Virus record (IMG/VR): IMGVR_UViG_3300024518_004461
Coordinates: 1-64,000 of that record
Source of the DNA: a virus
Reading direction: 5' to 3' (one strand)
Length of the DNA: 64,000 bases
This document shows positions 1,860 through 18,350 of this stretch, in pieces. Under the pieces are notes generated by a model. That model saw only the letters and a list, made by a program, of their open reading frames with translations, was not told where the DNA came from and did no database searches. Positions within the stretch are counted from its first letter, which is position 1. Every line of letters begins with the position of its first letter. Position numbers and translations under genes: made by a program.

Positions 1860-2852
1860 TCACATCATCTTCTTTCGATTATCAATCTCTTCTTTAATGA
1901 TTTCTTGTAGTCTTTCTTTAGAAATTGACATAAGGTTGCGTGATTCTGCGACGGGAGGTTGACCAACGGGATCTTCTTCAGGTTTTCCCCAGGGAGGACT
2001 AACATCAACATGTCCCTTCTCAAGAGCATTTACTGCGGCTGGAATATCAGGTTCATCGATTACTGGCATATCAGGTCGTTCTGGTGCCCAACTTGGAGTT
2101 GACATATTAATTCCTCCAAGATTATTAACCATTTTTGTAACCGCAGACTCAACTGCATCTTCACCTTGTTTGCCTGTCCAATCTTGTAAGAGCTTCATTA
2201 CTTGTTCCGGGGTTCGTCCTTGCCATCCCTTGAAGGTGTCTGGTACTGTGTCTTGACTGATTCCTCCCTTTGCCATTGATGTTAACATATCTCTAATAGG
2301 TTTTTCCTTAAATTGTTCAAAACCGCCCGAAGCTGGTTTCCCTTTCATCACTTGAAACTGACCCTTTGTCATCGCATTTAAAACCGCAACAAGTTGTTCA
2401 CCTGGAAAGTCAACATCATAACCACCAACCGATTGAGATGGATCAACCATCGCTGTAGCAATCCATCTATGATGTCCATCCATGATATATTTATCACTAC
2501 TAATGAAAGCGCCAAGATCGCCGCCCGCTTCCATTTTACTTGTAGGATCAATCATATGTAAGACAAATGTCATGGCTTTACCAATATTCATGCTAGATTG
2601 AGAAGGACTTAAATCTTGAACTGCTGCCACTCCACTTGGTTTGTAGTCCACATTAATTTCGTCATCGGTAGGATCTTGATCAAACTTTGAATGACCATGA
2701 GTTACGGCAACTTCAGCCGCAGCGGGATCTACATCAGATAATTTCAGCGGGAAGCGTACTGGATCGAACTCGTCGGGGTTTGCTTTTTCTCCTAATAGAT
2801 CTTCCGTTTCTTCTTTGATCATTCGTTCTAAATCTTCTCGTGATAGTTTCAT
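1860..2852 (-). CDS. ParB/sulfiredoxin-like domain protein carrying the leader motif at both ends
   Basis: ParB/Srx core DLSPSQ...FISSDKYIMDGHHRW. N-terminus MKLSREDLERMIKEE; C-terminal MSISKERLQEIIKEEI. Confidence 0.75.
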   Translation of the reverse strand: MKLSREDLERMIKEETEDLLGEKANPDEFDPVRFPLKLSDVDPAAAEVAVTHGHSKFDQDPTDDEINVDYKPSGVAAVQDLSPSQSSMNIGKAMTFVLHMIDPTSKMEAGGDLGAFISSDKYIMDGHHRWIATAMVDPSQSVGGYDVDFPGEQLVAVLNAMTKGQFQVMKGKPASGGFEQFKEKPIRDMLTSMAKGGISQDTVPDTFKGWQGRTPEQVMKLLQDWTGKQGEDAVESAVTKMVNNLGGINMSTPSWAPERPDMPVIDEPDIPAAVNALEKGHVDVSPPWGKPEEDPVGQPPVAESRNLMSISKERLQEIIKEEIDNRKKMM

Positions 2853-2856
2853 CTCT

Positions 2857-3456
2857 TTAGTCTCCTATAATATCGTTCAGTATTCTATTGATTCGATCAG
2901 CCTTTGAATATGGTTGTTTTATTTTTGATTCGGTAAGACTCATAAATGCACCTTGCGTTGAGGGTTCAGAAACTATATCAAAACATATCAACTGAAGATC
3001 TTCTTCTACAATCGTTTTCCCTTGGCTTTCGTGAACAGACCCCAAAGCCCGAGATGAAATTCCCAAAGTAACACCATCATTCACCAAAGATTCTAAAATT
3101 TTTCCTGCTGGTGTAGATAATACTTTAATTTTTCCTTTCAAGTCTTTACCTTCCCACCACAAATCAGTAACCATATGAGAAGCATTTTTAAGATTGACAA
3201 CTGAATCTTCTGGATGATCTAATTCTCCACAAGCCCGGTTCTCCTTGACTGTCTTCATATAGTTTTTGACTTCTCTTTCTAAGATTGGTTTAGGATAGAC
3301 ACGACCATTACCGTTTTGCTCATCTACTCTCTGCATAATTCCTGATAAGAAAGTTGCACCATTCTTAACTTGTATCTTTTCCGCCTCTGTCAATAAATCT
3401 TCACAGACTCCGCCAGCGCACAATTCATAATATTCTCTAAGAAGGTACTTGCTCAT
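2857..3456 (-). CDS. prohead core protease (T4 gp21-like)
   Basis: NGNGRVYP, GELDHP, LGISSRALGS and FDIVSEPST motifs of gp21-type serine proteases. Confidence 0.93.
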   Translation of the reverse strand: MSKYLLREYYELCAGGVCEDLLTEAEKIQVKNGATFLSGIMQRVDEQNGNGRVYPKPILEREVKNYMKTVKENRACGELDHPEDSVVNLKNASHMVTDLWWEGKDLKGKIKVLSTPAGKILESLVNDGVTLGISSRALGSVHESQGKTIVEEDLQLICFDIVSEPSTQGAFMSLTESKIKQPYSKADRINRILNDIIGD

Positions 3457-3460
3457 TTTA

Positions 3461-4669
3461 TTATCTCCCGTCTAATCCGTTAACCGATAAGACCGCAACA
3501 AGACCTGGTAAGTTCTCTTTGATATATACCCCAGAAAACAAGGTTTCGCATCTTCCACCAACATAAGACACGGCTGCGTCTAAATGTTTGCTAATCTCTG
3601 GATCTGTTGCCATCTCCGGTGTAATAATTAGTAGCATCGTTCCTGTAACAGACTTGCCTTTTGGCATCGGACACGGAGAACGCTTAATACAATTTTGATA
3701 AATGGCAGCGCCAAGCTTAGGATCTGCTGGATTTGCTATCATAGTAGAGCCCAAGAACATCCTTCCCTCGGTTCCTAAGCAGCGCCCAAGATCTTTTGAA
3801 TCAAAGGTCTGAACATAAGATTTTTCTGAAGCTAGTTTTAAAACTTGATGAAACAACTTAGCAAATGTAGAGTTCGCTACGGGATACATATTTAGAATAC
3901 CAACCTTTCCACGAAGTAGTTGTGTCTGTCTCTCATTATCAATAAGAATATGAGGGTGTGGTGCTACATCATTGGCTAGGGATAGTGCATTTTTAGAGAT
4001 AGTGTGGTTGAGAGATTCTTGCGCAGTAGGCCAAGATATGATATATACCACTTTTCCTTCGGCTTGGACTGAACTTAGATATCGCTCAAAAACTTCGTGA
4101 AGCTCTACGCAGGAACTTCCGGTGCCTCCACCTCCACCAGCCAAAACAAAAATCCAATCCACTTTGCCAAGCTTGGTTCGAATAGCGTCTTCAACAACTG
4201 CGCTGTTTTCGCTAAATACTTTCTTTCCATAAGCGACATTTTTGGCTACGCCATCAGCATCAGGGATTAGAATCAAATGGTCTGGATCTACACCTTCCGG
4301 CTGATCCTTTTCAGTAGTATTTAGGAGTAGTGTTTTATTGAATCCTAAATCTAAAAATGCTTTCGCTAGTTTTCCACCAGCACCACCAACACCAATAAAG
4401 GCACAATTCAAAGCAGACACCGCTTCATTCTCGGGCAGTTGCTCATCATGCTGGACTGTGATTTCCTCACCATAGTGCTCAATAAACCCAAAGTCTTCAG
4501 CATCAAAAGTTTCAAAAGAGGTACTAGTTACTGGCTCATCACTTGGTAAACTAAAAGCGTCTGCTTCTGTGATTAGTTCGGCTTTTATTTCTTCTTCCGG
4601 TTTTGCTTCTTCAATTTCACCAGCATCAATTTCTTCGTTTACATCTGGCTCTTGTTCGTCATCAATCAT
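3461..4669 (-). CDS. tubulin/FtsZ-family GTPase (PhuZ/TubZ/CetZ-like) with acidic N-terminal extension
   Basis: FIGVGGAGGK (T1 loop), AGGGGGTGSS (tubulin signature), LIDNE, TFDSKDL (T7-like DxxD). Confidence 0.88.
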   Translation of the reverse strand: MIDDEQEPDVNEEIDAGEIEEAKPEEEIKAELITEADAFSLPSDEPVTSTSFETFDAEDFGFIEHYGEEITVQHDEQLPENEAVSALNCAFIGVGGAGGKLAKAFLDLGFNKTLLLNTTEKDQPEGVDPDHLILIPDADGVAKNVAYGKKVFSENSAVVEDAIRTKLGKVDWIFVLAGGGGGTGSSCVELHEVFERYLSSVQAEGKVVYIISWPTAQESLNHTISKNALSLANDVAPHPHILIDNERQTQLLRGKVGILNMYPVANSTFAKLFHQVLKLASEKSYVQTFDSKDLGRCLGTEGRMFLGSTMIANPADPKLGAAIYQNCIKRSPCPMPKGKSVTGTMLLIITPEMATDPEISKHLDAAVSYVGGRCETLFSGVYIKENLPGLVAVLSVNGLDGR

Positions 4670-4672
4670 TTC

Positions 4673-4786
4673 TTATCTCCATTCATTATAAAAAGCGGGC
4701 GCAACCCGCGTGACTATGCACCCTGATTTGCATCGACGCACTGGTCGAAGCATACGAGATTTGCTTGTCCATAGATTTTCTAACAT
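4673..4786 (-). CDS. small basic Cys-containing peptide (37 aa)
   Basis: ATG overlaps the upstream TAA (TAATG). Translates MLENLWTSKSRMLRPVRRCKSGCIVTRVAPAFYNEWR; below the ORF-track cutoff. Confidence 0.45.
   Translation of the reverse strand: MLENLWTSKSRMLRPVRRCKSGCIVTRVAPAFYNEWR
4690..4709 (-). terminator. intrinsic terminator-like hairpin
   Basis: Minus strand GCGGG-TTGCG-CCCGC followed by TTTTT; short 5-bp GC stem. Confidence 0.45.
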
Positions 4787-5079
4787 TATTTTTCACCCCA
4801 CATTTTAAAATTTATTCCTTGATCACCAAAGATCATATTTCCAACATATGAAGTTCCAGAACTCACGCACCCCAAAATAAGTGCTGTGGTTATAGAATAT
4901 TCATAAGTAAATAGTTCTGTTTGTCCGTTTATCGCCCACAAAAACCATCCGACATGAAACCCCATACACATGGGACAATGGAACAAATGATATGATGGTC
5001 TGATTTTGTCAAATATTTTAGCATATACTAGGAGTTGTGTTAATCCATAGGAGGCTAAAACAAAATAGAATAGGCTCAT
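4786..5079 (-). CDS. small membrane protein with CxxC (DUF1360-like)
   Basis: Hydrophobic segments flank HCPMCMGFHVGW. Start placed at the ATGA overlap at 5079 (track start 5106). Confidence 0.65.
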   Translation of the reverse strand: MSLFYFVLASYGLTQLLVYAKIFDKIRPSYHLFHCPMCMGFHVGWFLWAINGQTELFTYEYSITTALILGCVSSGTSYVGNMIFGDQGINFKMWGEK

Positions 5080-5636
5080 GAATAATAGCCGGAATAATAT
5101 GTCCAAGGATTATTGGGACTGATTGAGCCCTTGTCTGGTGACTCGGGAACTTCTCCAAGTGCAGTCGAATCCTCTGCGTCGGGCTCTGTATACCAATCGT
5201 CAATTTCTTCTTCGTATCTTTCTTCTGCTTCAAACTTTGGTCTTTCTTGTTCTATGAATTGATAAGTAGAAAGAAGCACGACTTGTGTAGCATCTACACC
5301 CTCGTCGATGGCTTCGGGGTAATTCCCTTGAATACTGGCGTATACATCACCAGCATGGACTGATGATCTTTCAACGACACCTTTTTGTGACAGGTAATTA
5401 AAATAATTATTTTGAATCTGGTAGACTTCATCACTCATTTCGTTTTTTGGAAATGTAATGATCTTCTTGTTTGCATGGTCAATAACAATATCCAAGTCCT
5501 TATGATCCAAAACCATAATTTTTCCATCAACGGTCTTACGAGCAATCAAAGAAATCTGTGGGTGTGTTTCACTTTCTTCTTTGATTTCTTCTGCGCTCAA
5601 GGCATCAGGAGTAACATTTATTTTAATTGACGCCAT
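5076..5636 (-). CDS. hypothetical protein
   Basis: 186-aa acidic ORF in the portal operon, overlapping its neighbours. Confidence 0.7.
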   Translation of the reverse strand: MASIKINVTPDALSAEEIKEESETHPQISLIARKTVDGKIMVLDHKDLDIVIDHANKKIITFPKNEMSDEVYQIQNNYFNYLSQKGVVERSSVHAGDVYASIQGNYPEAIDEGVDATQVVLLSTYQFIEQERPKFEAEERYEEEIDDWYTEPDAEDSTALGEVPESPDKGSISPNNPWTYYSGYYS

Positions 5637-6459
5637 CGGATTTTATCTCATGTATCAAACCTTGTACCTTGATCACTTTTTGTATCATTTCCTTTTTTGG
5701 TTCTTCGTTTTTAAATTCTTCTAAGGATTCTATTATGGCTTGAACCTTTTTTGTCATAGCCGCATCACTTATAATTTCTTCCATCATTAAAGATTTTTTC
5801 AAATCCTTTTTCAGTCTAGATATCTCCTCGTTCAAATATAACTTTAGACGAAGACCGTTGTCCACAAAGGAAGAAACAAATTTAGATAATAGTTCCTTCT
5901 GTTCTTTCAGGAGTTCACCCGAGTATTCAGCATTAAACTTTTTAGTAAAAGTCTTATATACCAAGTTGTCAATAGGAACCATTTGATCTTTGCCCTTACC
6001 TTCGGACAAAATCATTCCTTTTATGATCTGGTTCTCTAATAGAACTTTTGTTTTTATGGTACTACGTTGATTAAAGATTTGATAAATAGTAGCAAGAGAT
6101 TTATAGTTAGGAACAAAATTATTGAAAGTGTCTTCTGGAAGCATCTTCTTGATTTTGCGAACTAGTTTATTTTGTTCCGATAATAGTCGTTTCTTATCAA
6201 TAACCTCTCTCTGCTTAAGCACTTCCGATAATATTCTCTCTGCCGTGCGGGGGTGAGCATTTTGAGTTTTTGTCAGCGAATGATATAGTTTCAATTCTTG
6301 ATGGAGAGATGTATCAAACCTAAAAGATTCTTTTATCAGAGATGCTATTTTTGTTTTTGAACTCTCATCTTTTTTCAAGATTGCTTTTGTTAGTTCTAGA
6401 ACCAGAGCCTCATATAAAAAAGCACTATTCTTTTTCTTGTTGTGTTTAAATTTTACCAT
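5623..6459 (-). CDS. helical head-assembly-region protein downstream of portal
   Basis: MVKFKHNKKKNSAFLYEAL..., Lys/Glu/Leu-rich. Start moved to ATG at 6459 (track start 6492). Confidence 0.7.
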   Translation of the reverse strand: MVKFKHNKKKNSAFLYEALVLELTKAILKKDESSKTKIASLIKESFRFDTSLHQELKLYHSLTKTQNAHPRTAERILSEVLKQREVIDKKRLLSEQNKLVRKIKKMLPEDTFNNFVPNYKSLATIYQIFNQRSTIKTKVLLENQIIKGMILSEGKGKDQMVPIDNLVYKTFTKKFNAEYSGELLKEQKELLSKFVSSFVDNGLRLKLYLNEEISRLKKDLKKSLMMEEIISDAAMTKKVQAIIESLEEFKNEEPKKEMIQKVIKVQGLIHEIKSDGVN

Positions 6460-8374
6460 TTTTTGCTTCTTCTCTTTTCTCCAAATTCTCAATAATTTGT
6501 TTGACTTCTCTACTATTACTTAAAACTTCGTTTTCTACCTTGGAGTCCTCAGTATAATTAGTTTCGGTATTTTCCTTTATCCCTTTGTATTGTTGCTTAA
6601 ATCCGTCAAGACCTGGGAAAACATTTCTTTGTGTATTCTTTCCCATCTCGGAAGCCACTTTCCCCATCATGTTTTTTCTTCTTCCGGCTTCTTCTCGATC
6701 ATCGTGCTTTTCTGGTATGTATGCTTTTCCTTTATCCTTTGGTGTATGGTGTGGCTTTGGGTTTTGAGTTCTCCACTTCATATCATTACGCTTCCCCGGT
6801 TCAGCCAATAGTGTTTCGTCTTCGCCGCCATCGTCTTCCCCGGCGTCGTCTTCGCCACCGAGATCTCCACCAAGATCGTCTCCGCCAAGATCTCCACCAA
6901 GGTCGTCGCCGCCGCCTTCATCTCCGCCGCCTTCTTCAGCCGCGCCCTCAAGCATCGCTTCAAATTTCTTGTCGTAAAACATTTCACGCTGGTTGCGAAC
7001 AATTTCTTCATCAGATAGATTGAGAAGATTCTTTGCTACCCACTGTTTGCTAAAGTATCCTTCAGTCGCAGCACCAGCAATTTCGAATTTCGTTCTCCAA
7101 TGCTCTAGTTCCTGAAGTTCAGCAATTTTAGAAGGGCTATTGAGATGTAGCTTGAAAGATAATAAATCCTTTCCTTTGAAGCCTAGTGTATACAAATGAA
7201 CAACCGCAATCTTTTCCAGTTCTGATACCACACTTCTTTGAAGCCTTTGTATTGTTCTGGCAAAACGCACGTCCTTTTGTGCAAGGGTAGTTTTTTCGTC
7301 ACCACCTTCATCTGATTGCGTAAGGTATGATGGTGGGACTTTCAACGCAGAAAATAGTTTATCACGCAAATATTTTACATCGTCCACATCACCCGTGTAA
7401 GTTCCGCCTGGAAGACTTTCAACTCTCGTATTAGAAGCTCCTCCGCGAACAGGGATAAAATAATCTTCATCGGTGCTCATGGGGTTGTAGCGCAAATCAA
7501 CACGACCAGTTTGAGAATCAATAACTTGATTTCTTTTCATCTGTGTTACAATGCGTTGCATATGCTGTTCAATTTCCTTTTCAGGAATTCCACCAACATC
7601 CACATAAAAAACACGTCGCTCGGGTGAGCGCACAACACGATAAGCCATCATCGCATCTTCTAATAGTTGTAGTTGTCTCCAAATGCGTCGGCAAGGCTCC
7701 AAAACAGAAGTTCCATAAGGAGCATATTTATCGTTTCCTAAAATTCGGAAATGTCCTATTTGCCAATTCTCAAAAGTAAGGCCACCACTGTTCCATTGGA
7801 ATTGAACATAGTTGGGGTTTGTTTTATCTTCACCCTCCATTCTTTCTACTTCCATAGACGGAAGTCCAATGACGTTGGTGATTCCCAATTCTTCGTTAAT
7901 ATCAAGATATAGAAACATATCCCCAAATTTGCACATTGATCGACACCATCCAAAAATATTAAACTCAATATTCAAAACATCATAAAACAGTTGTGATAAT
8001 ATCTCTTTGATTTCTTCGTTGGGACAATTGATTAGAAGTAGTTTTTGAATTGCTGACGAGGTGGTCATTTCATCTGCATAGATGTCTAACCCTGAAGCAA
8101 TCTCGGGCATGTATTCCATTTGATCAAAATCAATATATCGCTCTGCTCGGTTGACGTTTTGATATGCGGCTGTTCTAAAATTATCAAAAGGATTATGAGT
8201 TTGCTTTTTAAAGCTCAAACCACCAGGAGATGTAAAACTATATTTATTCAACTGACGGCGCTTAAGCTGACGTGGGTTTTGCTTTCGCCGATCAGTAATA
8301 GGACCAGATAAGAGTCTAGTTAGTGCGCGGTACAATGGGTTCTGATCATTGTTGGGGTTTCTTTTATTTTCCAT
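6446..8374 (-). CDS. portal protein (T4 gp20-like)
   Basis: LEDAMMAYRVVRSPERRVFYVDVG, EDYFIPVRGG, DVKYLRDKLFSALKVP, DVRFARTIQRLQ. Confidence 0.95.
   Translation of the reverse strand: MENKRNPNNDQNPLYRALTRLLSGPITDRRKQNPRQLKRRQLNKYSFTSPGGLSFKKQTHNPFDNFRTAAYQNVNRAERYIDFDQMEYMPEIASGLDIYADEMTTSSAIQKLLLINCPNEEIKEILSQLFYDVLNIEFNIFGWCRSMCKFGDMFLYLDINEELGITNVIGLPSMEVERMEGEDKTNPNYVQFQWNSGGLTFENWQIGHFRILGNDKYAPYGTSVLEPCRRIWRQLQLLEDAMMAYRVVRSPERRVFYVDVGGIPEKEIEQHMQRIVTQMKRNQVIDSQTGRVDLRYNPMSTDEDYFIPVRGGASNTRVESLPGGTYTGDVDDVKYLRDKLFSALKVPPSYLTQSDEGGDEKTTLAQKDVRFARTIQRLQRSVVSELEKIAVVHLYTLGFKGKDLLSFKLHLNSPSKIAELQELEHWRTKFEIAGAATEGYFSKQWVAKNLLNLSDEEIVRNQREMFYDKKFEAMLEGAAEEGGGDEGGGDDLGGDLGGDDLGGDLGGEDDAGEDDGGEDETLLAEPGKRNDMKWRTQNPKPHHTPKDKGKAYIPEKHDDREEAGRRKNMMGKVASEMGKNTQRNVFPGLDGFKQQYKGIKENTETNYTEDSKVENEVLSNSREVKQIIENLEKREEAKNGKI
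6820..6945 (-). repeat. Gly/Asp low-complexity repeat (GGDDLGGDL) in the portal C-terminus
   Basis: EEGGGDEGGGDDLGGDLGGDDLGGDLGGEDDAGEDDGGED; locally GC-rich. Confidence 0.8.
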
Positions 8375-8376
8375 TT

Positions 8377-9966
8377 CTATCCTTTTATAATCCAGCCGAA
8401 GTCTTCATAAAGTTTTTTAGCTTCTTGTATTCTATCACTACTTTCCACACTTTTGTAGCCGGTCATGCCGGGTATTGTAGTATTTAGTTTTGTGTTTGAT
8501 ACAATCATCGCGTTCAGTGTTGCCCTCTTAAATTGTAAGTCGCGGGTATTCTCCTGTAAGACCGTATCTCTAATCCAACAAGTTATAGCCAGAGCCATAA
8601 CTAGGTCGTCATTGTAGCTTCGCTGTGCTTCTGGTCTTCCGTTTTTCCATACAAAGGTTTTTAGTTCTTGATAAGTCCTCTCCGAATTTATAGTAATTAG
8701 TTCGTTGCGAACGAATTCTTCTAACTTGGCGACGATGAGCGGTCGTGTCTTTTGTGAAGTGGTGAAGCCTGGAACAGAGTTAGAAATTTGCTCGGCTTCA
8801 TATTGTTCAACATATTGATGAGTTCCTTTAGTAGAGTAATATAAATTTGGATAACCGGCATCAATGAGCTTTTCCAATACCGAGAAACCGATATTGTTGT
8901 TTTCAACAACCAGCATCGCATTTCCATATTCTTTTCCAGCATCAAATAAAATCCTCGCAAACAAATCAGTCGTAGGTTTGCCTCGATATTCGGCAACCTG
9001 AACCATCGTGTTTGTATTAAAAATGTGAAACACTGAATAATCAGCGCCATCGCCTCGTGAAACATCACCAACTAATAGATACTTGTTATCTGGATCATAT
9101 TGTTCCCAGATCCAAAAGTTTCTATCAAAACCTGTTTGGTGTTCTGGACTGCGACAAGCTAGTGCCATCTTATTTAAATTATCCGGGTGAATAACTGTTT
9201 CGCCTGAAGCATTAAAGTTGCACTCATACTCTTGTGCAACTTTACGGCGCGAAAGGTTTCTAGTTGTTTCATCGAACCAGGCTTGATCTCTTTCCGGGTG
9301 TAATGTCCAATGAAGGATCGTGGGGTGAAAATCATTTTCGCCAGCTTGTGCAGAAACATAAGTTTTATGAAACCAGTTGCCCACCCCATTAGGAGAAGAC
9401 AAGGCAATACAACGACCGCCCGCTGCCATTGTAGGTTGAAGTGCTGTCCATAATTCACTGAAGCCATCGATATGGGCGGCTTCGTCAATCACTAACAATG
9501 AGAGTGCTTCAGAGCGACCAGCATCAGCCGATGTGGACGTTGCTTTAATTTCAGAACCGTTACTCAAAACAAATGATGAACGATTATCAATGGCAATTTT
9601 GGCGATCTGATCAAACCAAGGAGGTAATAATTTGATCATCGCTTTTACTTTTTTTACAAGATTGGCTGCTGTACTAAATTTAGTTGCAATAACAAGAACA
9701 TTTTTATCACGATGAAAAAGAAGCATCCACGAAACATATGCAGCGGTAATTGTTGAAATACCCATTTGACGGGATTTTAAAATAACGTTGTTACGATAAT
9801 CGTTAAACTTTTGTAGTAAATCTTTTTGGAAGTCCCAAGTCTTAAATGGAATTTGCCCACGTTGAGGGTGAGCAATCTTACAATAATTGTCTATAAAATA
9901 AACAGGATCTTTGCCGCACTTAACAAGTTCTCGGACAAGTTCTTTTTTAGAAAGATATTGTGACAT
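8377..9966 (-). CDS. terL: terminase large subunit (T4 gp17-like)
   Basis: Walker A KSRQMGIST, Walker B LLVIDEAAH, nuclease motifs GDVSRGDGADYS and NDDLVMA. Confidence 0.95.
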   Translation of the reverse strand: MSQYLSKKELVRELVKCGKDPVYFIDNYCKIAHPQRGQIPFKTWDFQKDLLQKFNDYRNNVILKSRQMGISTITAAYVSWMLLFHRDKNVLVIATKFSTAANLVKKVKAMIKLLPPWFDQIAKIAIDNRSSFVLSNGSEIKATSTSADAGRSEALSLLVIDEAAHIDGFSELWTALQPTMAAGGRCIALSSPNGVGNWFHKTYVSAQAGENDFHPTILHWTLHPERDQAWFDETTRNLSRRKVAQEYECNFNASGETVIHPDNLNKMALACRSPEHQTGFDRNFWIWEQYDPDNKYLLVGDVSRGDGADYSVFHIFNTNTMVQVAEYRGKPTTDLFARILFDAGKEYGNAMLVVENNNIGFSVLEKLIDAGYPNLYYSTKGTHQYVEQYEAEQISNSVPGFTTSQKTRPLIVAKLEEFVRNELITINSERTYQELKTFVWKNGRPEAQRSYNDDLVMALAITCWIRDTVLQENTRDLQFKRATLNAMIVSNTKLNTTIPGMTGYKSVESSDRIQEAKKLYEDFGWIIKG

Positions 9967-9975
9967 ACATTACAA

Positions 9976-10554
9976 TTAGTCGCGAGGCTCTAGATCTCGT
10001 TTTCCTGAAACATTTTCTGGCTTCTTGGTTTTTGGGAATTTATCTTTTCCAAGGCCAAGCCAATTCTTGATGCTCGTATCCAAGCGTTCTTCTACAGTGT
10101 GTCCTAGTTCGGGTTCATCTGGGATTCCGCCAATCTTATATTCTTGCTGGGCTTGGACCCAAGACCTTACCTTGCTCGTAGTTTGAACAATCATATGAGG
10201 TTCACTGTCTTTTGGTTTAGTCAACGTAAGACCGTTGCCTGTGATCTTTTTATATTCCTTCTTTAGAAAGTTGGCAATATCTTGGAGTCGTTGTTCAATC
10301 TCTCCTTCATAATCACCCTTGTAGACCTCACGCAAAGTGACTTCACCCTGATATTTGATGGTGAGCATATTACCGTGAAAGGTTACACCAAATCCATCCA
10401 TGACTCTCTTATCGAGAATTGGATGACCCTCCTCTCTTTGAAGACCAACCTTGAGTGGTTCTCCATTTTCATCAAGCGCACCGTCAAAAGCGTTTGCAGC
10501 CGCTTGTTGGATACCTTGGATAATTTCTAGGACATTTGATTTTTTTTCAGCCAT
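9976..10554 (-). CDS. hypothetical protein upstream of terminase
   Basis: 192-aa ORF with GAGGA RBS. Confidence 0.7.
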   Translation of the reverse strand: MAEKKSNVLEIIQGIQQAAANAFDGALDENGEPLKVGLQREEGHPILDKRVMDGFGVTFHGNMLTIKYQGEVTLREVYKGDYEGEIEQRLQDIANFLKKEYKKITGNGLTLTKPKDSEPHMIVQTTSKVRSWVQAQQEYKIGGIPDEPELGHTVEERLDTSIKNWLGLGKDKFPKTKKPENVSGKRDLEPRD

Positions 10555-11141
10555 TATTTTTTATTCCTCTTAATAGATAGTTTGATTGATTTTTTTTCTT
10601 TAGCTAGCGATTGTATAACTTCGTAAGCTGCTGGTGAAACATAATAATTTTGCTTGGATTCCTTCACAAGATTACTAAAATCCCCAGATAAGATCTTTAT
10701 TACTTCTTTGCCAATTCTCTGTATGACGGGTGCATCTTCTTTGGCAAAATTCTTTCTTTGTGGGCCAGCTTTTTTATGAATAGTTTTGATTGCTTTGATG
10801 ATGGCTTCTCGGAACTTCTTCGAATCAATTCCTTGATTCCGCAATTGATTGAGTGCAGTCTGGATAGTTCCTGGTTTTAATTGCTTCAAGCCACGAAGGT
10901 CTTTTTTCTCGTCTTTTTGATCGTCATCTTTTTTGTCGTCTTTTTTGTCGTCTTCTTGATCGTCATCTTTTTTATCTTTATCTTTTTGATCCGAAGACGA
11001 ATCTTCCTCTTCTGACTCTTCTTCATCCTTCGCTTTAGCTTGTGCAAGTGTTTTAGAAAATTCCCCTTCTTTAAGGAAGTGGATTTCTTCGGAAATAAAA
11101 CTCTTTAGTTCGGATCTTGTAAGTCTAACTTTTCTAGCCAT
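10554..11141 (-). CDS. leader-bearing protein with Asp/Lys repeats
   Basis: VRLTRSELKSFISEEI leader variant; DDKKDDKKDDDQKDEKK low-complexity linker. Confidence 0.7.
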   Translation of the reverse strand: MARKVRLTRSELKSFISEEIHFLKEGEFSKTLAQAKAKDEEESEEEDSSSDQKDKDKKDDDQEDDKKDDKKDDDQKDEKKDLRGLKQLKPGTIQTALNQLRNQGIDSKKFREAIIKAIKTIHKKAGPQRKNFAKEDAPVIQRIGKEVIKILSGDFSNLVKESKQNYYVSPAAYEVIQSLAKEKKSIKLSIKRNKK

Positions 11142-11949: not shown

Positions 11950-12301
11950 ACTCTAATGTAATTCTCTCTGCCATCTGATCGGGATCATCAGTCCACTCTT
12001 TTATAACAGACTTGACAAATTTCTTTTCTTTCTTGTCTAGCGTCTTATTTTCTTTGGAATACTTTTCTTCAATTTTTTTAATTGCGTTGTCGTATTCTTT
12101 ATCGATCCACTCTTTCTCTTTCTTTTTATTTAATTCGGCTACTTCGATTGCATCTAATTGTTTCTTGTGAGAATCATCAGCAGCTTTGATAATCTCCTCA
12201 ATCTTGTTTTCTTTAGATCGAAAAACTAAAGCGACTATTATGAGAACAGGTATATACCAATAAGACTTTAGGAAAGACCAGATTTTTTTTATTATAATCA
12301 T
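11903..12301 (-). CDS. N-terminal TM plus coiled-coil protein (i-spanin-like candidate)
   Basis: YWYIPVLIIVALVF followed by a charged helical region. Confidence 0.5.
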   Translation of the reverse strand: MIIIKKIWSFLKSYWYIPVLIIVALVFRSKENKIEEIIKAADDSHKKQLDAIEVAELNKKKEKEWIDKEYDNAIKKIEEKYSKENKTLDKKEKKFVKSVIKEWTDDPDQMAERITLEFGFEYEPKKNNSNTD

Positions 12302-12702
12302 TTACCTTTATTATGATCTTTCCACGCTTTCGCAAATGCTTGTGGGCAATCGTCTTTTCCTCCACACATTTCTTTCTTCAATGCCATAACCAGATCTTTT
12401 TTCCCCGGTGGGGCTACTTCTTGGAGAGGGGTGGGCTGAAAGCCTTCTAGCTCCGCTGCAACCGCATCATCTATGACCTGCGCTAGTCTTTGTGCTAAAG
12501 CTTGTTGCTCTTTGTATTCTAGTGCTTTGTACTTGTGTCTTATAACAGAATCAATAAATCTTTTTTCTGTGTCATCTACAGATGGGCTAGGCGCATTCTT
12601 TTTTTGTTTTGGGGGAGACACGCTGAAATCACCAGGTTCCATAAAACTTTCATCAAGTTCTTCTTGAATAATCTTCTTGAGTTGTGACTTAGTGATTTTC
12701 AT
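12298..12702 (-). CDS. leader-bearing putative internal head protein
   Basis: Starts MKITKSQLKKIIQEEL; C-terminal LQEVAPPGKKDLVMALKK module. Confidence 0.7.
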   Translation of the reverse strand: MKITKSQLKKIIQEELDESFMEPGDFSVSPPKQKKNAPSPSVDDTEKRFIDSVIRHKYKALEYKEQQALAQRLAQVIDDAVAAELEGFQPTPLQEVAPPGKKDLVMALKKEMCGGKDDCPQAFAKAWKDHNKGK

Positions 12703-12705
12703 ATT

Positions 12706-13149
12706 TTATGAACTCCATCTATTACGCATCTCTTGTGTTGCTTCTTCAATTGCTTGGTTGAGCCACTGTGGATCTTCTTCCTCTAATGAGTTGAATTTGA
12801 TTGACCAGCCTTCGGTGGTGTTCTCGGGAAGTTCGGTGGTTTTGGGGCCGCCGCCATAGCTCCAATTATTCGATTCGCTCGCTCTATAAGCATCAATAGC
12901 ATCTATTAGGTTCGTTCCCTTGGGACCGATAAAATCAGGACTCGCAGAAGAACCACCAGAAGTCCCAGCGGCTACCACTCTGACTTGATCTGTTAGGGGG
13001 TCTGTATTTTTGAGTTGCCAAGCTTGTTCGTTTGGTGCCCACTCAAAACTCCACGGGCCTTCTTCACCCTCGAAAGTGACTTCTTCTTTTAACAAACGAG
13101 TCATTTCTTCTTTAATAATTTTCTTAAGTTGTGATCTTGTAACTTTCAT
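12706..13149 (-). CDS. leader-bearing putative internal head protein
   Basis: Starts MKVTRSQLKKIIKEEM; body is acidic and Trp-rich, unrelated to its neighbours. Confidence 0.7.
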   Translation of the reverse strand: MKVTRSQLKKIIKEEMTRLLKEEVTFEGEEGPWSFEWAPNEQAWQLKNTDPLTDQVRVVAAGTSGGSSASPDFIGPKGTNLIDAIDAYRASESNNWSYGGGPKTTELPENTTEGWSIKFNSLEEEDPQWLNQAIEEATQEMRNRWSS

Positions 13150-13910
13150 TTTTTCTTTCTGCGGATTTTTATTTTCCTGTTTTCTTGTAACGGAAATTCC
13201 ATTTGTGCTGGGTCTTCGCCAGGTCCAGGGGCATCCACGCCTTGTGGTGATAGAACACCACGGATAAAATTAATTGCGTCCATTAGTGTTTCGGGGTTTG
13301 CATGTTGCATAGCTTCTTCATCTGTGGATGGATACACTTCAACTTCATAATTGCTATCATCCCACACATCAATCGTAGCACTCTTGTAGGGCTCTCCCGA
13401 GGGGCTACTGTAGTTTGTTATTCCTTGTTGTTTCTCGCGACTGGATGCTTTATCTTGCAAGCCTAGATTTTCCATCTCAGGAGAGATAATGGTGTTAATA
13501 GCATTTTCCAGTTCTACGGCTAGTTCCTTGTTGTATCTGTCTTCGCCGAAGCGAGTTACGATTTCATCAAAGTCAGCAAACTTTTCTGCGCCCGCAGTTA
13601 CTTCTGCAAGAATTTCTTTAATATATTCCTGTAGCGATTCTTTTTCTAAGAGTGATTCATTTTTTTTATCAACACCTACATCCTTGATGCTTCCGTATTT
13701 ATCGGGATTAGCATTGACGGCTGCTCGGGCCCTTTCTTCTGTCTTTCCACCGGCTCTTAAGGCGTCGGCCACCTTGCTTACAGAAATATCTTCATCCTCG
13801 GGAACACCAAGCTCTCTGTGCAACGCGCCTTTGTTTTTTCCAAATGCTTTTTGCATCCAGTCTTCTTCTTCTTGGATAATTTGTTTGAGTTTTGATTTTG
13901 TGATTTTCAC
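13146..13910 (-). CDS. leader-bearing putative internal head protein
   Basis: Starts (GTG) MKITKSKLKQIIQEEE; internal second motif ESLQEYIKEILAE. Confidence 0.7.
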   Translation of the reverse strand: MKITKSKLKQIIQEEEDWMQKAFGKNKGALHRELGVPEDEDISVSKVADALRAGGKTEERARAAVNANPDKYGSIKDVGVDKKNESLLEKESLQEYIKEILAEVTAGAEKFADFDEIVTRFGEDRYNKELAVELENAINTIISPEMENLGLQDKASSREKQQGITNYSSPSGEPYKSATIDVWDDSNYEVEVYPSTDEEAMQHANPETLMDAINFIRGVLSPQGVDAPGPGEDPAQMEFPLQENRKIKIRRKKK

Positions 13911-14149
13911 GACATCGTCCTTGACTCGATTGTATCCATTATATCAGCATCAGTAACTCCGGCTTCGACGCATTGATTTACCGCAGCTTCTAAAGCGGCG
14001 AGTGCCGCCCCTTGCTTGTCAGTTAGATCGGTATACAACTTTTGTCCGGTCTGATCAGCGTAGAGTTGAGCGGTTGGATCATCATAACGAGGAGCTTCGC
14101 TCAATTCCTCTTTGATGATTTGTTTAAGTTTTTGTTTTGTAATTTTCAT
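13907..14149 (-). CDS. leader-bearing putative internal head protein
   Basis: Start moved to ATG at 14149, giving MKITKQKLKQIIKEEL. Confidence 0.7.
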   Translation of the reverse strand: MKITKQKLKQIIKEELSEAPRYDDPTAQLYADQTGQKLYTDLTDKQGAALAALEAAVNQCVEAGVTDADIMDTIESRTMS

Positions 14150-14150
14150 T

Positions 14151-14336
14151 TTAGTTTCCGTGTTTCCAGTTAGTCGCAATATCCGCGATGCCCTGTATTC
14201 CTATGTAACCCAACGCAATAGCCACCCATTGATCGCCACTGATCGGACCTAGATATAAAAAGAGAGTGGCTAAAGAGAAAACCGTAAATTTTCTCGATAC
14301 CACTTTCTTTAATGTTTTGTCAATAAATGAACTCAC
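14151..14336 (-). CDS. holin-like small membrane protein
   Basis: 61 aa, SRKF followed by two hydrophobic helices. Confidence 0.55.
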   Translation of the reverse strand: MSSFIDKTLKKVVSRKFTVFSLATLFLYLGPISGDQWVAIALGYIGIQGIADIATNWKHGN

Positions 14337-14563
14337 TCTTTTCCTTTGTTGAACAAACTCAACAAAACAATAAGCGACAATAGTCCAACAAACCCACTTG
14401 ATCCAATAGACTCAATTAGTTTGACAACGTTGCCGACGACGCCCATTCCAAAAATACCTGCTCCATAAATTACTTCAACAAGAATTGCCAAAGCGAGCAA
14501 ATTCATTACCAGACCTGTAAGTCCACTAACACCTTCATTAACTGTTTTTAAAATATCTTTCAT
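14333..14563 (-). CDS. small membrane protein (holin/antiholin candidate)
   Basis: Start at ATG 14563 after AGGAGG; two to three TM segments. Confidence 0.55.
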   Translation of the reverse strand: MKDILKTVNEGVSGLTGLVMNLLALAILVEVIYGAGIFGMGVVGNVVKLIESIGSSGFVGLLSLIVLLSLFNKGKE

Positions 14564-14587
14564 ATTCACGTACCTCCTACGCAAATA

Positions 14588-14595
14588 TAAATAGT
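14588..14595 (-). promoter_or_regulatory. putative late promoter ACTATTTA
   Basis: Intergenic AACTATTTATA at the head of the holin/leader-gene run. Confidence 0.6.
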
Positions 14596-14598
14596 TAG

Positions 14599-17500
14599 CT
14601 ACGCAGTAACATTCGCATATCCATCTTTCTTTTCTATAGTGATGATTGAGTCCGCAGCATCTTTTAAGTTATCAAGATGAGAAATTAAAATAACAGTTTT
14701 GAAAATAGAAGTTGTAATATCGAGAATACGCACAAAGCCTTCCATTCTTTCAGCATCTAAAGCAGTACCGGGCTCGTCTAAAATAAACAATTGTGATTTG
14801 GGTAATGAAGAAATATTTGTGAACGCCAAACGTATTGCCATCGCAGCCACAGTTTTTTCCGCACCACTAGCCATTTCTAATGGACTAGGATCACGATCTG
14901 GTTGTTGGATATAAATATCTAGACGATTGTCGTCCGTCTCAAAGAGCACTTGGAAATCTACTACATTCGCAAGTATCTTGGAAATCTCATTATTGATTGT
15001 TGGCAAACTCTTTTTGATTATGTTATATGCAATACCGTTCGGGTGCATACAGCGCATATACAGATCGTGTGCTTCATAATCATTCTTTAGGTTTTCGCAC
15101 TTGGTCTTTTCTACTTCGAGATTTTGAATTCTATGTTCGCTAAACCCATGAAGTTTATAAAGCCTTAGCAATTCGCTTTCGCATTCCTCTAACTTAACAA
15201 CGCATTTCCTAAGCGCAGAAATCTTTAAGTTCTTATCTTTAACAATCCCTTCTAAATCTTCTATGACCTCTTTATTATCATCATAAAACTTTTCTTTCTC
15301 TTGGAGTTCTCTTATTTCGTGTTCTATGATCAATTTCTTTGAGGATAGGTTCTCTATCAAAAGTTCATCAGTAGGTATCTGATTCTCTAAATCTTTTTTG
15401 AGTTTCAGTAGATCCTCAAACTTGGCAAGATGGCTCTCTACATTATCAATTTCTAAAGAATTCATTTCCACTTGAATTGATTGGGACTCCTCCTGTTTAG
15501 TTTGTTGACCAATTTGAACTAATGGAATTTTATTTTTGGCTTCATACGCATCACGAATAAATTTACAATGTGAAAATTCAGATCCACAAGGAACCTCTTT
15601 CAATAACTTCGCTCGCGTCTCAAATTGAGATAATTCAGTTTTACTGGCTTTTAGATCTAAAGTGATATTCACTAGTTCTTTTTCGAGTTCTAGATATTTT
15701 CGCTTCTGTGAAAATAGAAAATCCTCATCAAACGATTTAATGAAATCGTTAGCTTTAGTAATTTTGTTTTTATTTTTGATGTTCTCATCAGTCTTGTGTA
15801 TTATGTCTTTTTCGTATAGTAACAACTTCTTCTCTGACTGAGATATGGAATTACGAATATTAAGAATATCAATGATTTCTGTGGGGGCTGATTGAATTTT
15901 ATCTTCTAGATCTGAAATCTGATCCTTAAGAACAACAACCTCCTTCTTTAATATCTCACAACTATTTTTTCTTTTTATCGTCGCGGCTTCGTTATCAAGA
16001 AGATCTTTATGGGCTATCCTTATGTCTTCATCATAATCAACCGCATCAAGAACTTTAATCTCGGCTTTGATATCGGCTGCATCTTCCTTTGCTGTCTTGA
16101 ATTTTTTATCAAAGATCTCTAGATCTAAAAACTTTGCCAAGATTTCTTTGCGCCTTGTAGAGCCTTCATTAATAAATGCTAGCGCACCCAATTGAGAACT
16201 CATAGAAGTTATTAAGAAATCGTCAAGACTTCCAAAATATTTCATAATATTCTTGTCGGTGTCTGAGCGAGTAAGCCCATTTAAAGATTCTTCCTTTTCA
16301 GTCGCTATGTCCCAAGATTTAAAGTCTACAACAGTTTTAGCCTCAACTGTTTCTGCCCCTTTTAGCCGCTTGAGATACTTGCTGGATTCTCTCCTAATTG
16401 TATATACTTTGTTGCCTCGCCTAATCTTAACCTGACCAAAGCCTTCGGTCTTGTTGTTATTGATTATGTTGAGGTTCTTACGCGAATTCTTTGAAATTGA
16501 GTTGTAGATCGTATACAAAAGCGAATCAACGATACTGGACTTACCAGAAAAGTTGCGACCATAAATCCCAGTAATTCCACTATAATTGGTAAAGTCTATG
16601 CGATTGCCTTCGCCATAATTAAACAGGTTGCTCCACTCCAATTCCAGAATTTCAAAATCCACATTACGATAAGTCTCGTCATTGTTTTCGACAATCTGTT
16701 TATATTTTTTGTTTAGATCCCGGATCTTCTTTTCAAGAGCTTCATCAATTTTATAGTCTTCTAGATATTCGCCAATTAATTTTTCTTGAACTACAAGATC
16801 TCTGAGGTTTTCTTTTTGAAAAGAGTCTCCTATCTCCACACCGCTGGTGAACGTAGATTTATTCACTACCGTAATTGATTCTGGCTTGTGGCGTTTTTTT
16901 GCAACATCCACAGCCTTCTTTAGTGCTATGGCGGAAATGCTGTTCTCTACCACCAATCTCAAACGAGCACCTTCAGGTACAGAAGTTTCGGGAACTTTGC
17001 CATCCTTGGTAAGAGGTAGCGAGATAAATGGTTTTGGATTTGTAAGAGTGACGGGTCTAACGGTAAAATCTTCTTTGCTCTTAATATCCCAAATCAAGAA
17101 ACCTTTACAAGTTCCTTCGCCATGATTTTGTTGGATGGTGCTGCCAGCATAACGAATGCGGCCGGCTTTGTCCATAATTTGATTTGTTAAGTGTATGTCT
17201 CCCAACATCGCATAATCAAATTTATCAAAGATCGAAATGTCATGCTCGCCAATATCCATCTTCCACCCTATGTCTGTTTGACAACCACTAATGGAGCCAT
17301 GATAAAGAGCAATATTTATTTGATCAGGATTGGACGGATCTTTCCAATTATCCTCATCAAACACGCTCAACACGTTTAAGGTAAACTCGTGACCCATATC
17401 AACTTCGCAAGAGTTCTTTAGTAAATGTAGGTTGGAATGATTAAGAGATTTTACGATTGGAGTGATTGCATCTTGTCTGCTTGTGTTTCTTAAGTTGCCG

Positions 17501-17742
17501 TCGTGATTGCCTAAGATGATATATGTTGGGGCAATCTCCGCTAAATTATAAAGAAAGTCAGAAGTCATCTCCACATATTCAGGAGAAATCTGTGTCTTGG
17601 TGTGGCATATGTCGCCACAATGAACAATATAATCCACCTTCTCTTTTCGGAGAGTTTCATATATTTTATTAAATATAATCTTATATTCGGTGTGATATTT
17701 GAGATTGCGAATATGGGTATCCGCGATGTGAGCAAACTTCAT
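14599..17742 (-). CDS. Mre11/SbcD-Rad50/SbcC fusion (T4 gp47-gp46-like recombination nuclease)
   Basis: Phosphoesterase motifs AHIADTH, GDICH, GNHD, GDIH; Walker A GRNFSGKSS; long coiled coil; ASGAEK signature; FILDEP; ISH. Confidence 0.93.
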   Translation of the reverse strand: MKFAHIADTHIRNLKYHTEYKIIFNKIYETLRKEKVDYIVHCGDICHTKTQISPEYVEMTSDFLYNLAEIAPTYIILGNHDGNLRNTSRQDAITPIVKSLNHSNLHLLKNSCEVDMGHEFTLNVLSVFDEDNWKDPSNPDQINIALYHGSISGCQTDIGWKMDIGEHDISIFDKFDYAMLGDIHLTNQIMDKAGRIRYAGSTIQQNHGEGTCKGFLIWDIKSKEDFTVRPVTLTNPKPFISLPLTKDGKVPETSVPEGARLRLVVENSISAIALKKAVDVAKKRHKPESITVVNKSTFTSGVEIGDSFQKENLRDLVVQEKLIGEYLEDYKIDEALEKKIRDLNKKYKQIVENNDETYRNVDFEILELEWSNLFNYGEGNRIDFTNYSGITGIYGRNFSGKSSIVDSLLYTIYNSISKNSRKNLNIINNNKTEGFGQVKIRRGNKVYTIRRESSKYLKRLKGAETVEAKTVVDFKSWDIATEKEESLNGLTRSDTDKNIMKYFGSLDDFLITSMSSQLGALAFINEGSTRRKEILAKFLDLEIFDKKFKTAKEDAADIKAEIKVLDAVDYDEDIRIAHKDLLDNEAATIKRKNSCEILKKEVVVLKDQISDLEDKIQSAPTEIIDILNIRNSISQSEKKLLLYEKDIIHKTDENIKNKNKITKANDFIKSFDEDFLFSQKRKYLELEKELVNITLDLKASKTELSQFETRAKLLKEVPCGSEFSHCKFIRDAYEAKNKIPLVQIGQQTKQEESQSIQVEMNSLEIDNVESHLAKFEDLLKLKKDLENQIPTDELLIENLSSKKLIIEHEIRELQEKEKFYDDNKEVIEDLEGIVKDKNLKISALRKCVVKLEECESELLRLYKLHGFSEHRIQNLEVEKTKCENLKNDYEAHDLYMRCMHPNGIAYNIIKKSLPTINNEISKILANVVDFQVLFETDDNRLDIYIQQPDRDPSPLEMASGAEKTVAAMAIRLAFTNISSLPKSQLFILDEPGTALDAERMEGFVRILDITTSIFKTVILISHLDNLKDAADSIITIEKKDGYANVTA

Positions 17743-17750
17743 TACTTACC

Positions 17751-17778
17751 ATTATACCAGGAGATATGGTTAAGTCAA
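17751..17778 (-). promoter_or_regulatory. sigma70-type promoter
   Basis: TTGACT-16 nt-TATAAT with a TG extension; the -10 box ends 8 nt before the ATG at 17742. Confidence 0.65.
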
Positions 17779-17802
17779 GAGAAAGTTTTTGTTTAGTTAA
17801 TT

Positions 17803-18042
17803 TTATCCACTCTTTCTCCAAGGGCACGGTGGTTTGCTGGGGTCATTGGTTATCGCATCCATTTTGGCTTCCAGCTCATCAAGAAACTGTCCATCTTGAG
17901 CGCCGCTCGGATCGTTCCGCATGTTGGCCAGAGCCTGAGCATAATGCCGTTGTAACTTCGCACACTCATCTTCTTCTTCGTTCATTAGTGTATCAAGTTC
18001 TTCCTTAATAATTTGTTTAAGTTTTGATTTAGTTAATTTCAT
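17803..18042 (-). CDS. leader-bearing putative internal head protein
   Basis: Starts MKLTKSKLKQIIKEEL; RBS AGGAGAAACAA. Confidence 0.72.
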   Translation of the reverse strand: MKLTKSKLKQIIKEELDTLMNEEEDECAKLQRHYAQALANMRNDPSGAQDGQFLDELEAKMDAITNDPSKPPCPWRKSG

Positions 18043-18075
18043 TTGTTTCTCCTATAAAACCGAAAGTTTCTTTAA

Positions 18076-18083
18076 TAAATAGT
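18076..18083 (-). promoter_or_regulatory. putative late promoter ACTATTTA
   Basis: 33 nt upstream of the ATG at 18042. Confidence 0.6.
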
Positions 18084-18086
18084 TGC

Positions 18087-18350
18087 TTATACTTCTTCTA
18101 AGCGAAACCGCACTAGAACAAAGTTTCTTCCTGGGTTTTCATTGGAGTATTCTTCTAGTACGTCTTGGCCATCTTTATCATCATATCCACTCCATCCATC
18201 CTCTCCACGAGGCATCATCAATTTGCCGCGCTCTTTTTCCGCGACATAAACAATATCTTCTCTATCATATTGCACCGATTCCTCGTTTAAGTTAATACCA
18301 GAGATTTCCTCTTTGATGATCTGTTTGAGTTTTGATTTGGTAAGTTTCAT
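18087..18350 (-). CDS. leader-bearing putative internal head protein
   Basis: Starts MKLTKSKLKQIIKEEI; RBS AGGAGAAACAA. Confidence 0.72.
   Translation of the reverse strand: MKLTKSKLKQIIKEEISGINLNEESVQYDREDIVYVAEKERGKLMMPRGEDGWSGYDDKDGQDVLEEYSNENPGRNFVLVRFRLEEV

Follow-up and report, generated by a model that had tools for sequence, protein, structure and literature searches.

Gene order and tagged genes

We analyzed the first 64 kb (here called the window) of IMG/VR virus record IMGVR_UViG_3300024518_004461, a contig of 111,008 bases with a CheckV completeness of 61%, from which we estimate a full genome size of ~180 kb. The phage belongs to an uncultured marine T4-like lineage, and the nearest cultured phages, Flavobacterium phage immuto and Microcystis phage Mel-JY01, are distant (portal, ~40% identity). 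Eight minus-strand open reading frames (ORFs) in the window begin with the peptide MKxTKxxLKxIIKEE or a variant of it. This leader, hereafter called the tag, is followed by protein bodies of 64 to 315 residues. The tagged genes, designated A to H, are listed below; G001, which is nearly identical to this phage, and, further on, G005 are relatives used for comparison.

18087-18350, minus strand: tagged A, 87 aa (MKLTKSKLKQIIKEE, leader at 18306-18350), with an acidic orphan body; without a counterpart in G001
17803-18042, minus strand: tagged B, 79 aa (MKLTKSKLKQIIKEE, leader at 17998-18042); without a counterpart in G001
13907-14149, minus strand: tagged C, 80 aa (MKITKQKLKQIIKEE, leader at 14105-14149)
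13146-13910, minus strand: tagged D, 254 aa (VKITKSKLKQIIQEE, leader at 13866-13910); GTG start overlapping the stop of C
12706-13149, minus strand: tagged E, 147 aa (MKVTRSQLKKIIKEE, leader at 13105-13149); second LKE at residues 20-22
12298-12702, minus strand: tagged F, 134 aa (MKITKSQLKKIIQEE, leader at 12658-12702)
10554-11141, minus strand: tagged G, 195 aa; the leader, a variant, begins after four residues (MARK-VRLTRSELKSFISEE, 11085-11129) and leads into an acidic low-complexity stretch, with a basic tail behind it
1860-2852, minus strand: tagged H, 330 aa, directly downstream of the protease gene; N-terminal variant leader at 2808-2852
~1887-1934, minus strand: second tag copy at the C-terminus of H (MSISKERLQEIIKEEI), found with a profile hidden Markov model (HMM) at E 7

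Between 1 and 20 kb of the window, every gene lies on the minus strand. Read in the direction of transcription, the region opens with a DNA primase and a RuvC-like resolvase, which are followed by tagged A and B, a fused SbcD/SbcC-like nuclease (SbcCD), and two small ORFs. Tagged C, D, E, and F come next, and then three small conserved ORFs, tagged G, a 192-aa ORF, the terminase, and the portal. ORFs of 289, 186, and 106 aa and a 402-aa tubulin/FtsZ-like protein lead up to the prohead protease and tagged H, and the series closes with a 92-aa ORF, a conserved 137-aa protein, and ribosomal protein S21. The contig stops ~2.8 kb beyond the protease, ahead of the scaffold and capsid genes. Because this 61%-complete fragment lacks the capsid gene, we used relatives for capsid comparisons. 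The near-identical relative L126 (protease 100% identical) keeps the T4 order, with a 408-aa acidic putative scaffold followed by a gp23-like major capsid protein (phrog_138; E 2e-70). The following genes frame the tagged ones:

18363-19274, minus strand: DNA primase, at the start of the region in the direction of transcription
8377-9966, minus strand: terminase large subunit, the commonest neighbor of tag genes on other contigs
6446-8374, minus strand: portal protein, T4 gp20-like (phrog_213; E 6.5e-77)
1543-1821, minus strand: 92-aa ORF between tagged H and the 137-aa protein
1133-1546, minus strand: 137-aa conserved head-module protein, a candidate for a prohead core protein, whose N-terminus (MKKSELKEILKPLIKECIREAIFEE) resembles the tag

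A conserved leader on unrelated bodies

An earlier reading made from the letters of the window (the sequence-only reading) had proposed a portable leader on unrelated proteins, and both parts of this proposal held up. At all eight positions where it had placed a leader, the minus strand translates to the peptide it had given. Each leader lies at the start of its ORF or at most four codons from it, always on the coding strand, and a regular-expression scan of the six frames of the window found the motif at these eight places and nowhere else. The sequence-only reading had also suggested a profile scan of the full genome. A profile HMM of the eight leaders, run on six frames of the whole contig, scored the eight at E values between 9e-8 and 2.5e-5; no further N-terminal copy was found on the contig (next match, E 0.5), and one extra copy, at E 7, appeared near the C-terminus of H. 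The bodies behind the leaders have no mutual similarity by BLASTP (best E, 0.24).

The payloads in the window are orphans, except for a weak ParB/sulfiredoxin-like fold of H (see below), and searches of A to G against Pfam and PHROGs gave nothing above threshold. A word-index protein search with B returned 46 matches, mostly true B homologues, which are metagenomic only; this count is no gauge of the spread of the tag. The ESM Atlas yielded no lead for D. Tagged G is conserved in the relatives L126 and L131. Its tag variant is followed by FLKEGE and a long acidic D/E/K low-complexity stretch, an architecture resembling that of the T4 prohead core protein gp67 (LIKEEK, FLIEGEE, and an acidic tail). 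The architecture of the 137-aa protein is likewise similar to that of T4 gp68. We considered both as homologues of these core proteins and claim neither, as BLASTP found no similarity in either pair; nor does the 137-aa protein match any family in PHROGs or Pfam.

Among the six canonical leaders of the window there are 117 codon differences, 67 synonymous and 50 nonsynonymous. The same tendency is seen in 229 distinct metagenomic copies, where each degenerate site is written with several codons while the residue is fixed (six codons for Leu8 and four for Thr4). Fixed residues despite varied codons indicate that selection acts on the peptide rather than on the DNA, in agreement with the sequence-only reading. 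The leader DNA is A-rich.

The same reading had similarity ending abruptly after the two glutamates, and here it needs correction. Judged at positions outside those fixed by the search pattern, conservation reaches approximately residue 22, with a hydrophobic residue at position 16 (89%), hydrophobic residues at positions 19 and 20, and Glu at position 22 (43%); beyond this, it is at background. Every one of the eight window leaders ends in I-x-E-E, as had been noticed, and I-x-E stands at the end of the tag in 97% of 230 metagenomic copies. Of the tag proteins, 40% have another [LI]-x-E, at residue 21 or 22; this second site is enriched ~20-fold over the per-position background of 1.3% in the bodies. 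The earlier description of an amphipathic helix fared less well: the predicted helix is moderately amphipathic, with a hydrophobic moment of 0.35, and since 24% of shuffles reach this value, strong amphipathicity is unsupported.

The prohead protease and its probable cut motif

A protease of the kind that the sequence-only reading had recognized is indeed encoded beside tagged H:

2857-3456, minus strand: prohead protease, T4 gp21 family; Pfam PF03420 (Peptidase_S77), 105.3 bits against a cut-off of 27; phrog_207, E 6.6e-54

When aligned with T4 gp21, the columns of the catalytic residues His85 and Ser140 and of Asp168 are invariant, and the C-terminal LTE↓S of the protease (arrow, known or putative cut position) lines up with ITE↓S of T4. 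The T4 enzyme cleaves L/I-X-E behind the Glu, a capsid-targeting sequence (CTS) makes up the first ten residues of IPIII, T4 Alt has propeptides and is processed at both termini, and redundant cut sites occur in the head-protein propeptides of giant phages such as phiKZ (PMC9026906).

An alignment of T4 gp23 with the capsid proteins of the present lineage places Glu65 and Ala66 in invariant columns, LTE↓A standing opposite LRE↓A. In T4, these two residues flank the maturation cut of gp23. T4-type L/I-x-E specificity is thus plausibly kept in this lineage. The motif [LI]-x-E is also in excess in the 137-aa core candidate (8 observed versus 1.7 expected; z = 5.5), in the putative scaffold (17 versus 10), and in the 289-aa head-module protein (12 versus 5.7), and it is not enriched in the terminase, the portal, the tubulin-like protein, or SbcCD. 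If core proteins were shredded as they are in T4, such an excess in core-type proteins would be expected.

A protein tagged at both ends

The gene for H directly follows the protease gene in five relatives as well. The C-terminal 30 residues (ESRNLMSISKERLQEIIKEEL...), which hold the second tag copy, are conserved better than the body in all six sequences. An invariant Glu-Ser precedes this copy in six of six sequences, with V, L, I, or A at P3, so that [VLI]-x-E↓S lies ahead of it in five of the six (L131 has A at P3). The Glu-Ser is, by its sequence, a plausible cut site.

Within the body of H, DGHHRW is invariant across the six relatives. The protein has no Pfam match, and a PDB sequence search with it was empty. 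An AlphaFold2 (AF2) model of H is of low confidence, with a mean predicted local distance difference test (pLDDT) score of 51. Among the eight top PDB matches to the model, only rank 6 is not a sulfiredoxin, ParB, or ParB-related chain; the other seven have Z scores of 3.4 to 4.7 and include sulfiredoxin, Atu1540, PadC, KorB, and pNOB8 ParB. Residues ~71 to 180 of H may therefore form a ParB/sulfiredoxin-like domain, which we offer as a lead from modeling rather than as proof.

Spread, portability, and genomic linkage of the tag

A degenerate DNA pattern of the tag matched at least 120 stretches in IMG/VR. The same pattern had no match in 596 Gb of prokaryotic sequence, comprising one genome each of 185,579 species. 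At least 120 viral matches with none in prokaryotic genomes exclude chance; the tag is virus specific and very widespread. A 36-position profile built from 120 N-termini retrieved 15,933 cluster representatives (50% identity) at an E value of ≤0.001 from among 1.84 billion. The bodies are correspondingly varied, with 237 tag proteins of the fetched loci falling into 176 body clusters. Among the 60 longest tag proteins, single members have an LRR, an RNase_T-type (DEDD) exonuclease, DUF6321, or DUF6745, and the others have no Pfam family. Distinct domains behind one tag mean that the tag is truly portable across folds.

Homologues of this phage's genes were present in 99 of the 120 listed loci that had been retrieved by the tag alone, and we conclude from this that the tag marks one phage lineage. 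Tag genes usually adjoin packaging and head genes: the commonest companions in the 120 listed loci are the terminase (63 loci), the portal (55 loci), and small ORFs just upstream of the terminase. Of 10 long contigs that bear the tag, 9 encode an S77 protease; all three contigs with a completeness of at least 95% are among these 9, and the sole exception is a 62%-complete fragment. Five long records, three of them at least 95% complete, have 3 to 17 tag copies each (6 to 11 in the three near-complete ones), all on the strand of the protease; a reversed control pattern gave 0 or 1.

Some tag proteins carry more than one copy. Among the 15,933 profile matches, 333 reach an E value of ≤1e-10, for which more than one tag copy is needed, and the best ones listed carry 2 to 4. 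The internal copies mostly have a Met before them, along with codons resembling a translated ribosome-binding site. These multicopy proteins are probably in-frame fusions of neighboring tag genes and may be real polyproteins or gene-calling artifacts. Separately, 18 tag copies lie within 45 residues of a C-terminus.

We also observed a second N-terminal tag in the same lineage, MK[LQ]L[FM]ENWR[KR]x[LM]xE, which ends in [LM]-x-E and occurs on 17 distinct and apparently unrelated proteins of 78 to 324 aa. Examples are found at L141:563-1513 (+), L138:15959-16933 (+), L053:4096 (+), and L067:7074 (+), with none on this contig.

Turnover and regulation of the tagged genes

The sequence-only reading had asked whether payloads vary between close relatives, and they do. 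In G001, the primase and SbcCD are 98 to 99% identical to those of the window. A and B are missing from G001, a 76-bp gap standing in their place, as is E, and its D and F are 74% and 55% identical, respectively. The cargo set of G005 is different and has no counterpart of E. Across G001 and G005, the homologues of F are 55 to 63% identical. There are two fast-turnover islands of tagged genes: one lies upstream of the terminase-portal-protease module, the other between the primase and SbcCD.

Four promoter-like elements accompany these islands:

18383-18390, minus strand: putative late promoter 40 nt upstream of A, a CTATTTAT motif with AGGAGAAACAA-ATG behind it
18075-18082, minus strand: CTATTTAT motif 40 nt upstream of B, with the ribosome-binding site AGGAGAAACAA
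14587-14594, minus strand: CTATTTAT motif heading the gene run that holds C to F and runs on to the terminase and portal
17751-17778, minus strand: near-consensus extended -10 sigma-70-type promoter (TTGACT-16-TG-TATAAT) before the SbcCD-like gene

In six relatives, the CTATTTAT motif with its ribosome-binding site is also found ahead of the putative scaffold gene, at a distance of 34 to 40 nt. The SbcCD gene, which lies between the two tag islands, has a sigma-70-type promoter, unlike the CTATTTAT of A and B. At this locus, the arrangement of CTATTTAT fits late expression of the tagged genes.

Comparison with known systems

The T4 system offers several parallels. There, a CTS that gp21 removes is found on IPI, IPII, IPIII, and Alt, and in both cases a short N-terminal peptide ending in L/I-x-E sits on unrelated hypervariable proteins. 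Here, too, the phage encodes a protease of the gp21 family, both termini of one cargo are flagged, as in Alt, and the cargo differs between close relatives. By these comparisons of genes, the tag matches every testable functional feature of the T4 CTS system. The scale is different: there are 8 cargo genes in this fragment and 3 to 17 tag copies per long record versus three or four cargo proteins in T4, and ~15,900 cargo clusters are found across the lineage. The cargo bodies here are mostly acidic. Diversity behind a conserved CTS has been described for the internal proteins of T-even phages (PMC3012670).

Giant phages (phiKZ, 201phi2-1, and SPN3US) also resemble this system in that the propeptides of many head-internal proteins are cut after Glu by a diverged gp21 homologue, with redundant sites (PMC9026906). 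Their cut motif is S/A-x-E, and they are jumbo phages, compared with the ~180-kb genome here. Moreover, PMC9026906 describes no single near-invariant tag common to their propeptides, whereas the tag here is nearly identical on each cargo.

A third parallel is provided by the cargo-loading peptides of encapsulins, in which a short portable peptide sends diverse cargo into an HK97-fold shell. Those peptides are usually C-terminal, bind the shell protein directly, and are not cleaved, and encapsulins are bacterial nanocompartments without scaffold or protease. The present tag also occurs at a C-terminus, but no encapsulin is present here.

The sequence-only reading had called the leader a different address tag. 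This stands at the level of sequence; as a concept, the tag falls under a principle already established for T-even phages, that of the CTS and the hypervariable internal proteins (PMC3012670, PMC9026906). The tag itself, its scale, and its lineage are absent from the literature that we searched: six tag strings did not occur in it, and the CTS papers there do not mention marine phages. A tblastn search for cultured carriers with a typed consensus and gene B gave nothing useful, the low-complexity filter probably masking the tag.

Proposed function and alternatives

On balance, we favor the view that the 15- to 22-residue leader is a lineage-specific functional analogue of the T4 CTS that differs from it in sequence. 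By analogy with the internal proteins of T4, the most likely role of the tag is to bring a rapidly changing set of proteins into the capsid. We infer docking, cleavage, virion presence, and injection of the tagged proteins, and the steps might run as follows. The tag would be a propeptide, predicted to be helical, that docks new proteins to the assembling prohead, at its scaffold or core, and the docked proteins would be enclosed once the shell closes. The S77 protease (2857-3456) would then remove the tag by cutting after the Glu in I-K-E↓E, with a backup cut at the [LI]-x-E approximately seven residues further on. Once freed, the mostly acidic payloads would remain beside the DNA in the head and presumably reach the cell interior upon infection. 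H, tagged at both ends and encoded beside the protease, would be trimmed at both ends like T4 Alt. A complex prediction combining the tag (36 aa; 120-row alignment) with the putative scaffold of L126 and the 137-aa core candidate scored 0.00, which is evidence neither way.

A number of observations weigh against capsid loading. The tag has no sequence similarity to the T4 peptide MKTYQEFIAE, the two having only the initial MK and the terminal I-x-E in common, and it is 15 to 22 rather than 10 residues long; because sequence and length both differ, the tag lies outside the T4 CTS sequence family. I-x-E-E is short, and a Lys/Glu-rich helix could carry such a motif for other reasons. The bodies are mostly acidic (pI, 4.0 to 4.7 in six of eight). 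A and B sit among replication and recombination genes, outside the structural module. We had considered depletion of the cut motif in the payload bodies, which was not seen (297 [LI]-x-E observed versus 306 expected), and CTATTTAT as a general mark of tag genes, which it is not: it precedes 5 of 188 metagenomic tag genes, 2.7% compared with 3.1% of long ORFs. Finally, a whole-record pattern search found at most one weak copy each in HTVC008M (Pelagibacter), immuto, and Mel-JY01.

The main rival, which we hold to be unlikely, is that the leader helix docks to a conserved partner other than the prohead, such as RNA polymerase, the ribosome (the phage encodes S21), the tubulin-like protein, DNA, or a host factor, and that the tagged proteins act in the cytoplasm and are never packaged. 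The near-invariance of the tag over ~15,900 clusters does imply one conserved partner, without specifying which. The location of A and B between primase/resolvase and SbcCD and the acidity of the bodies would suit a cytoplasmic role, as would the fact that small, fast-turnover orphan genes are also typical of the early host-takeover genes of T4. Such a partner, however, leaves unexplained the protease motif that ends 97% of tags and the enrichment of a second site, the tight linkage to the terminase, portal, and S77 protease, and the two-ended H, which comes directly after the protease gene and has a cut motif before its C-terminal copy. The promoter-like motif of A and B also points away from the cytoplasm, being common to the putative scaffold gene rather than resembling the neighboring sigma-70-type promoter. 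Less likely again is that the tagged proteins are disposable fillers of the core or scaffold, analogous to T4 gp67, gp68, or the bulk internal proteins, that are degraded or serve only in assembly or DNA condensation, their bodies being largely neutral filler. The tag would then help to assemble and process the core, and the proteins would not be effectors for delivery. The 137-aa protein, with its tag-like N-terminus and strong [LI]-x-E excess, and tagged G, whose tag variant and acidic low-complexity stretch are reminiscent of gp67, lend this idea some support, and most bodies are short orphans without recognizable domains. Yet some tagged proteins have folded domains (the LRR, the DEDD exonuclease, and possibly the ParB/sulfiredoxin fold), and neither G nor the 137-aa protein is similar by BLASTP to its T4 counterpart. 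The bodies themselves have no excess of the cut motif, so they would probably survive the protease.

It is highly improbable, in our estimation, that the shared 5′ end acts as nucleic acid or in gene flow, either as an A-rich, unstructured translation initiation region or as a patch of homology for recombination, with the peptide itself functionless. The A-richness of the leader DNA, the frequent gain and loss of cassettes, and the in-frame fusions of neighboring tag genes (the 333 profile matches with more than one copy) would all be in keeping with such a role, and the second copy on H, at its C-terminus, resembles the start of a further tag gene that has been captured. The use of several codons per degenerate site with a fixed residue, together with the 67 synonymous changes among the 117, contradicts a purely nucleic acid role; recombination may exploit the patch but cannot explain its conservation.

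If capsid loading is correct, the proteins packaged by these marine phages outnumber by far the three or four internal proteins of T4 and change faster. Thousands of "dark matter" viral ORFs could then be marked by a single short peptide as virion internal and probably injected, which would give a simple sequence rule by which to annotate a large share of the orphan genes of ocean viromes. The tagged proteins would be a source of candidate counter-defense or takeover effectors, and the tag would be a compact means of packaging foreign proteins. A more far-reaching version, which we put forward only tentatively and would not bet on, is that MKITKSQLKQIIKEE serves as the address label for a virion-delivered protein repertoire that is among the largest known: in this abundant marine lineage, ~16,000 unrelated families would be loaded by way of one invariant peptide, trimmed by the head protease, and injected as host-takeover or counter-defense effectors. 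In that version the tag would work at either terminus, fused tag genes would be polyproteins resolved by the protease, and the tag would be transferable as a packaging signal.

Other features of the head module

Four further features of the region were observed. The tubulin/FtsZ-family GTPase of 402 aa (3461-4669, minus strand) lies between the portal and prohead protease genes, a position kept in the relatives L126, L132, L141, and L143. Its top PDB match is 3zid_A, a tubulin/FtsZ GTPase (E 1.1e-9), and many FtsZ chains come next, at ~1e-4; the Pfam Tubulin score of 27.9 bits is below the cut-off. It is unusual for a T4-like phage of ~180 kb to have a tubulin homologue within its head module. 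The ribosomal protein S21 homologue (916-1122, minus strand; Pfam, 46 bits) is also encoded within the head gene module, in a position that matches the annotated S21 of Microcystis phage Mel-JY01.

Between the S21 and putative scaffold genes are tandem paralogues of ~135 aa in one to three copies (M..Y.[FY]K.G.GD..[AS]YQV[SA]G[KR]P[FYW]..G), found at 474-887 and 3-461 of the window (both minus strand) and at L126:12257-13496 (+). Their copy number differs among relatives, and they match no family. In the nuclease gene between the tag islands (14599-17742, minus strand), an SbcD-like phosphoesterase N-terminus and an SbcC-like ATPase (phrog_77) are fused in one 1047-aa ORF, unlike their T4 counterparts, gp47 and gp46, which are separate proteins.

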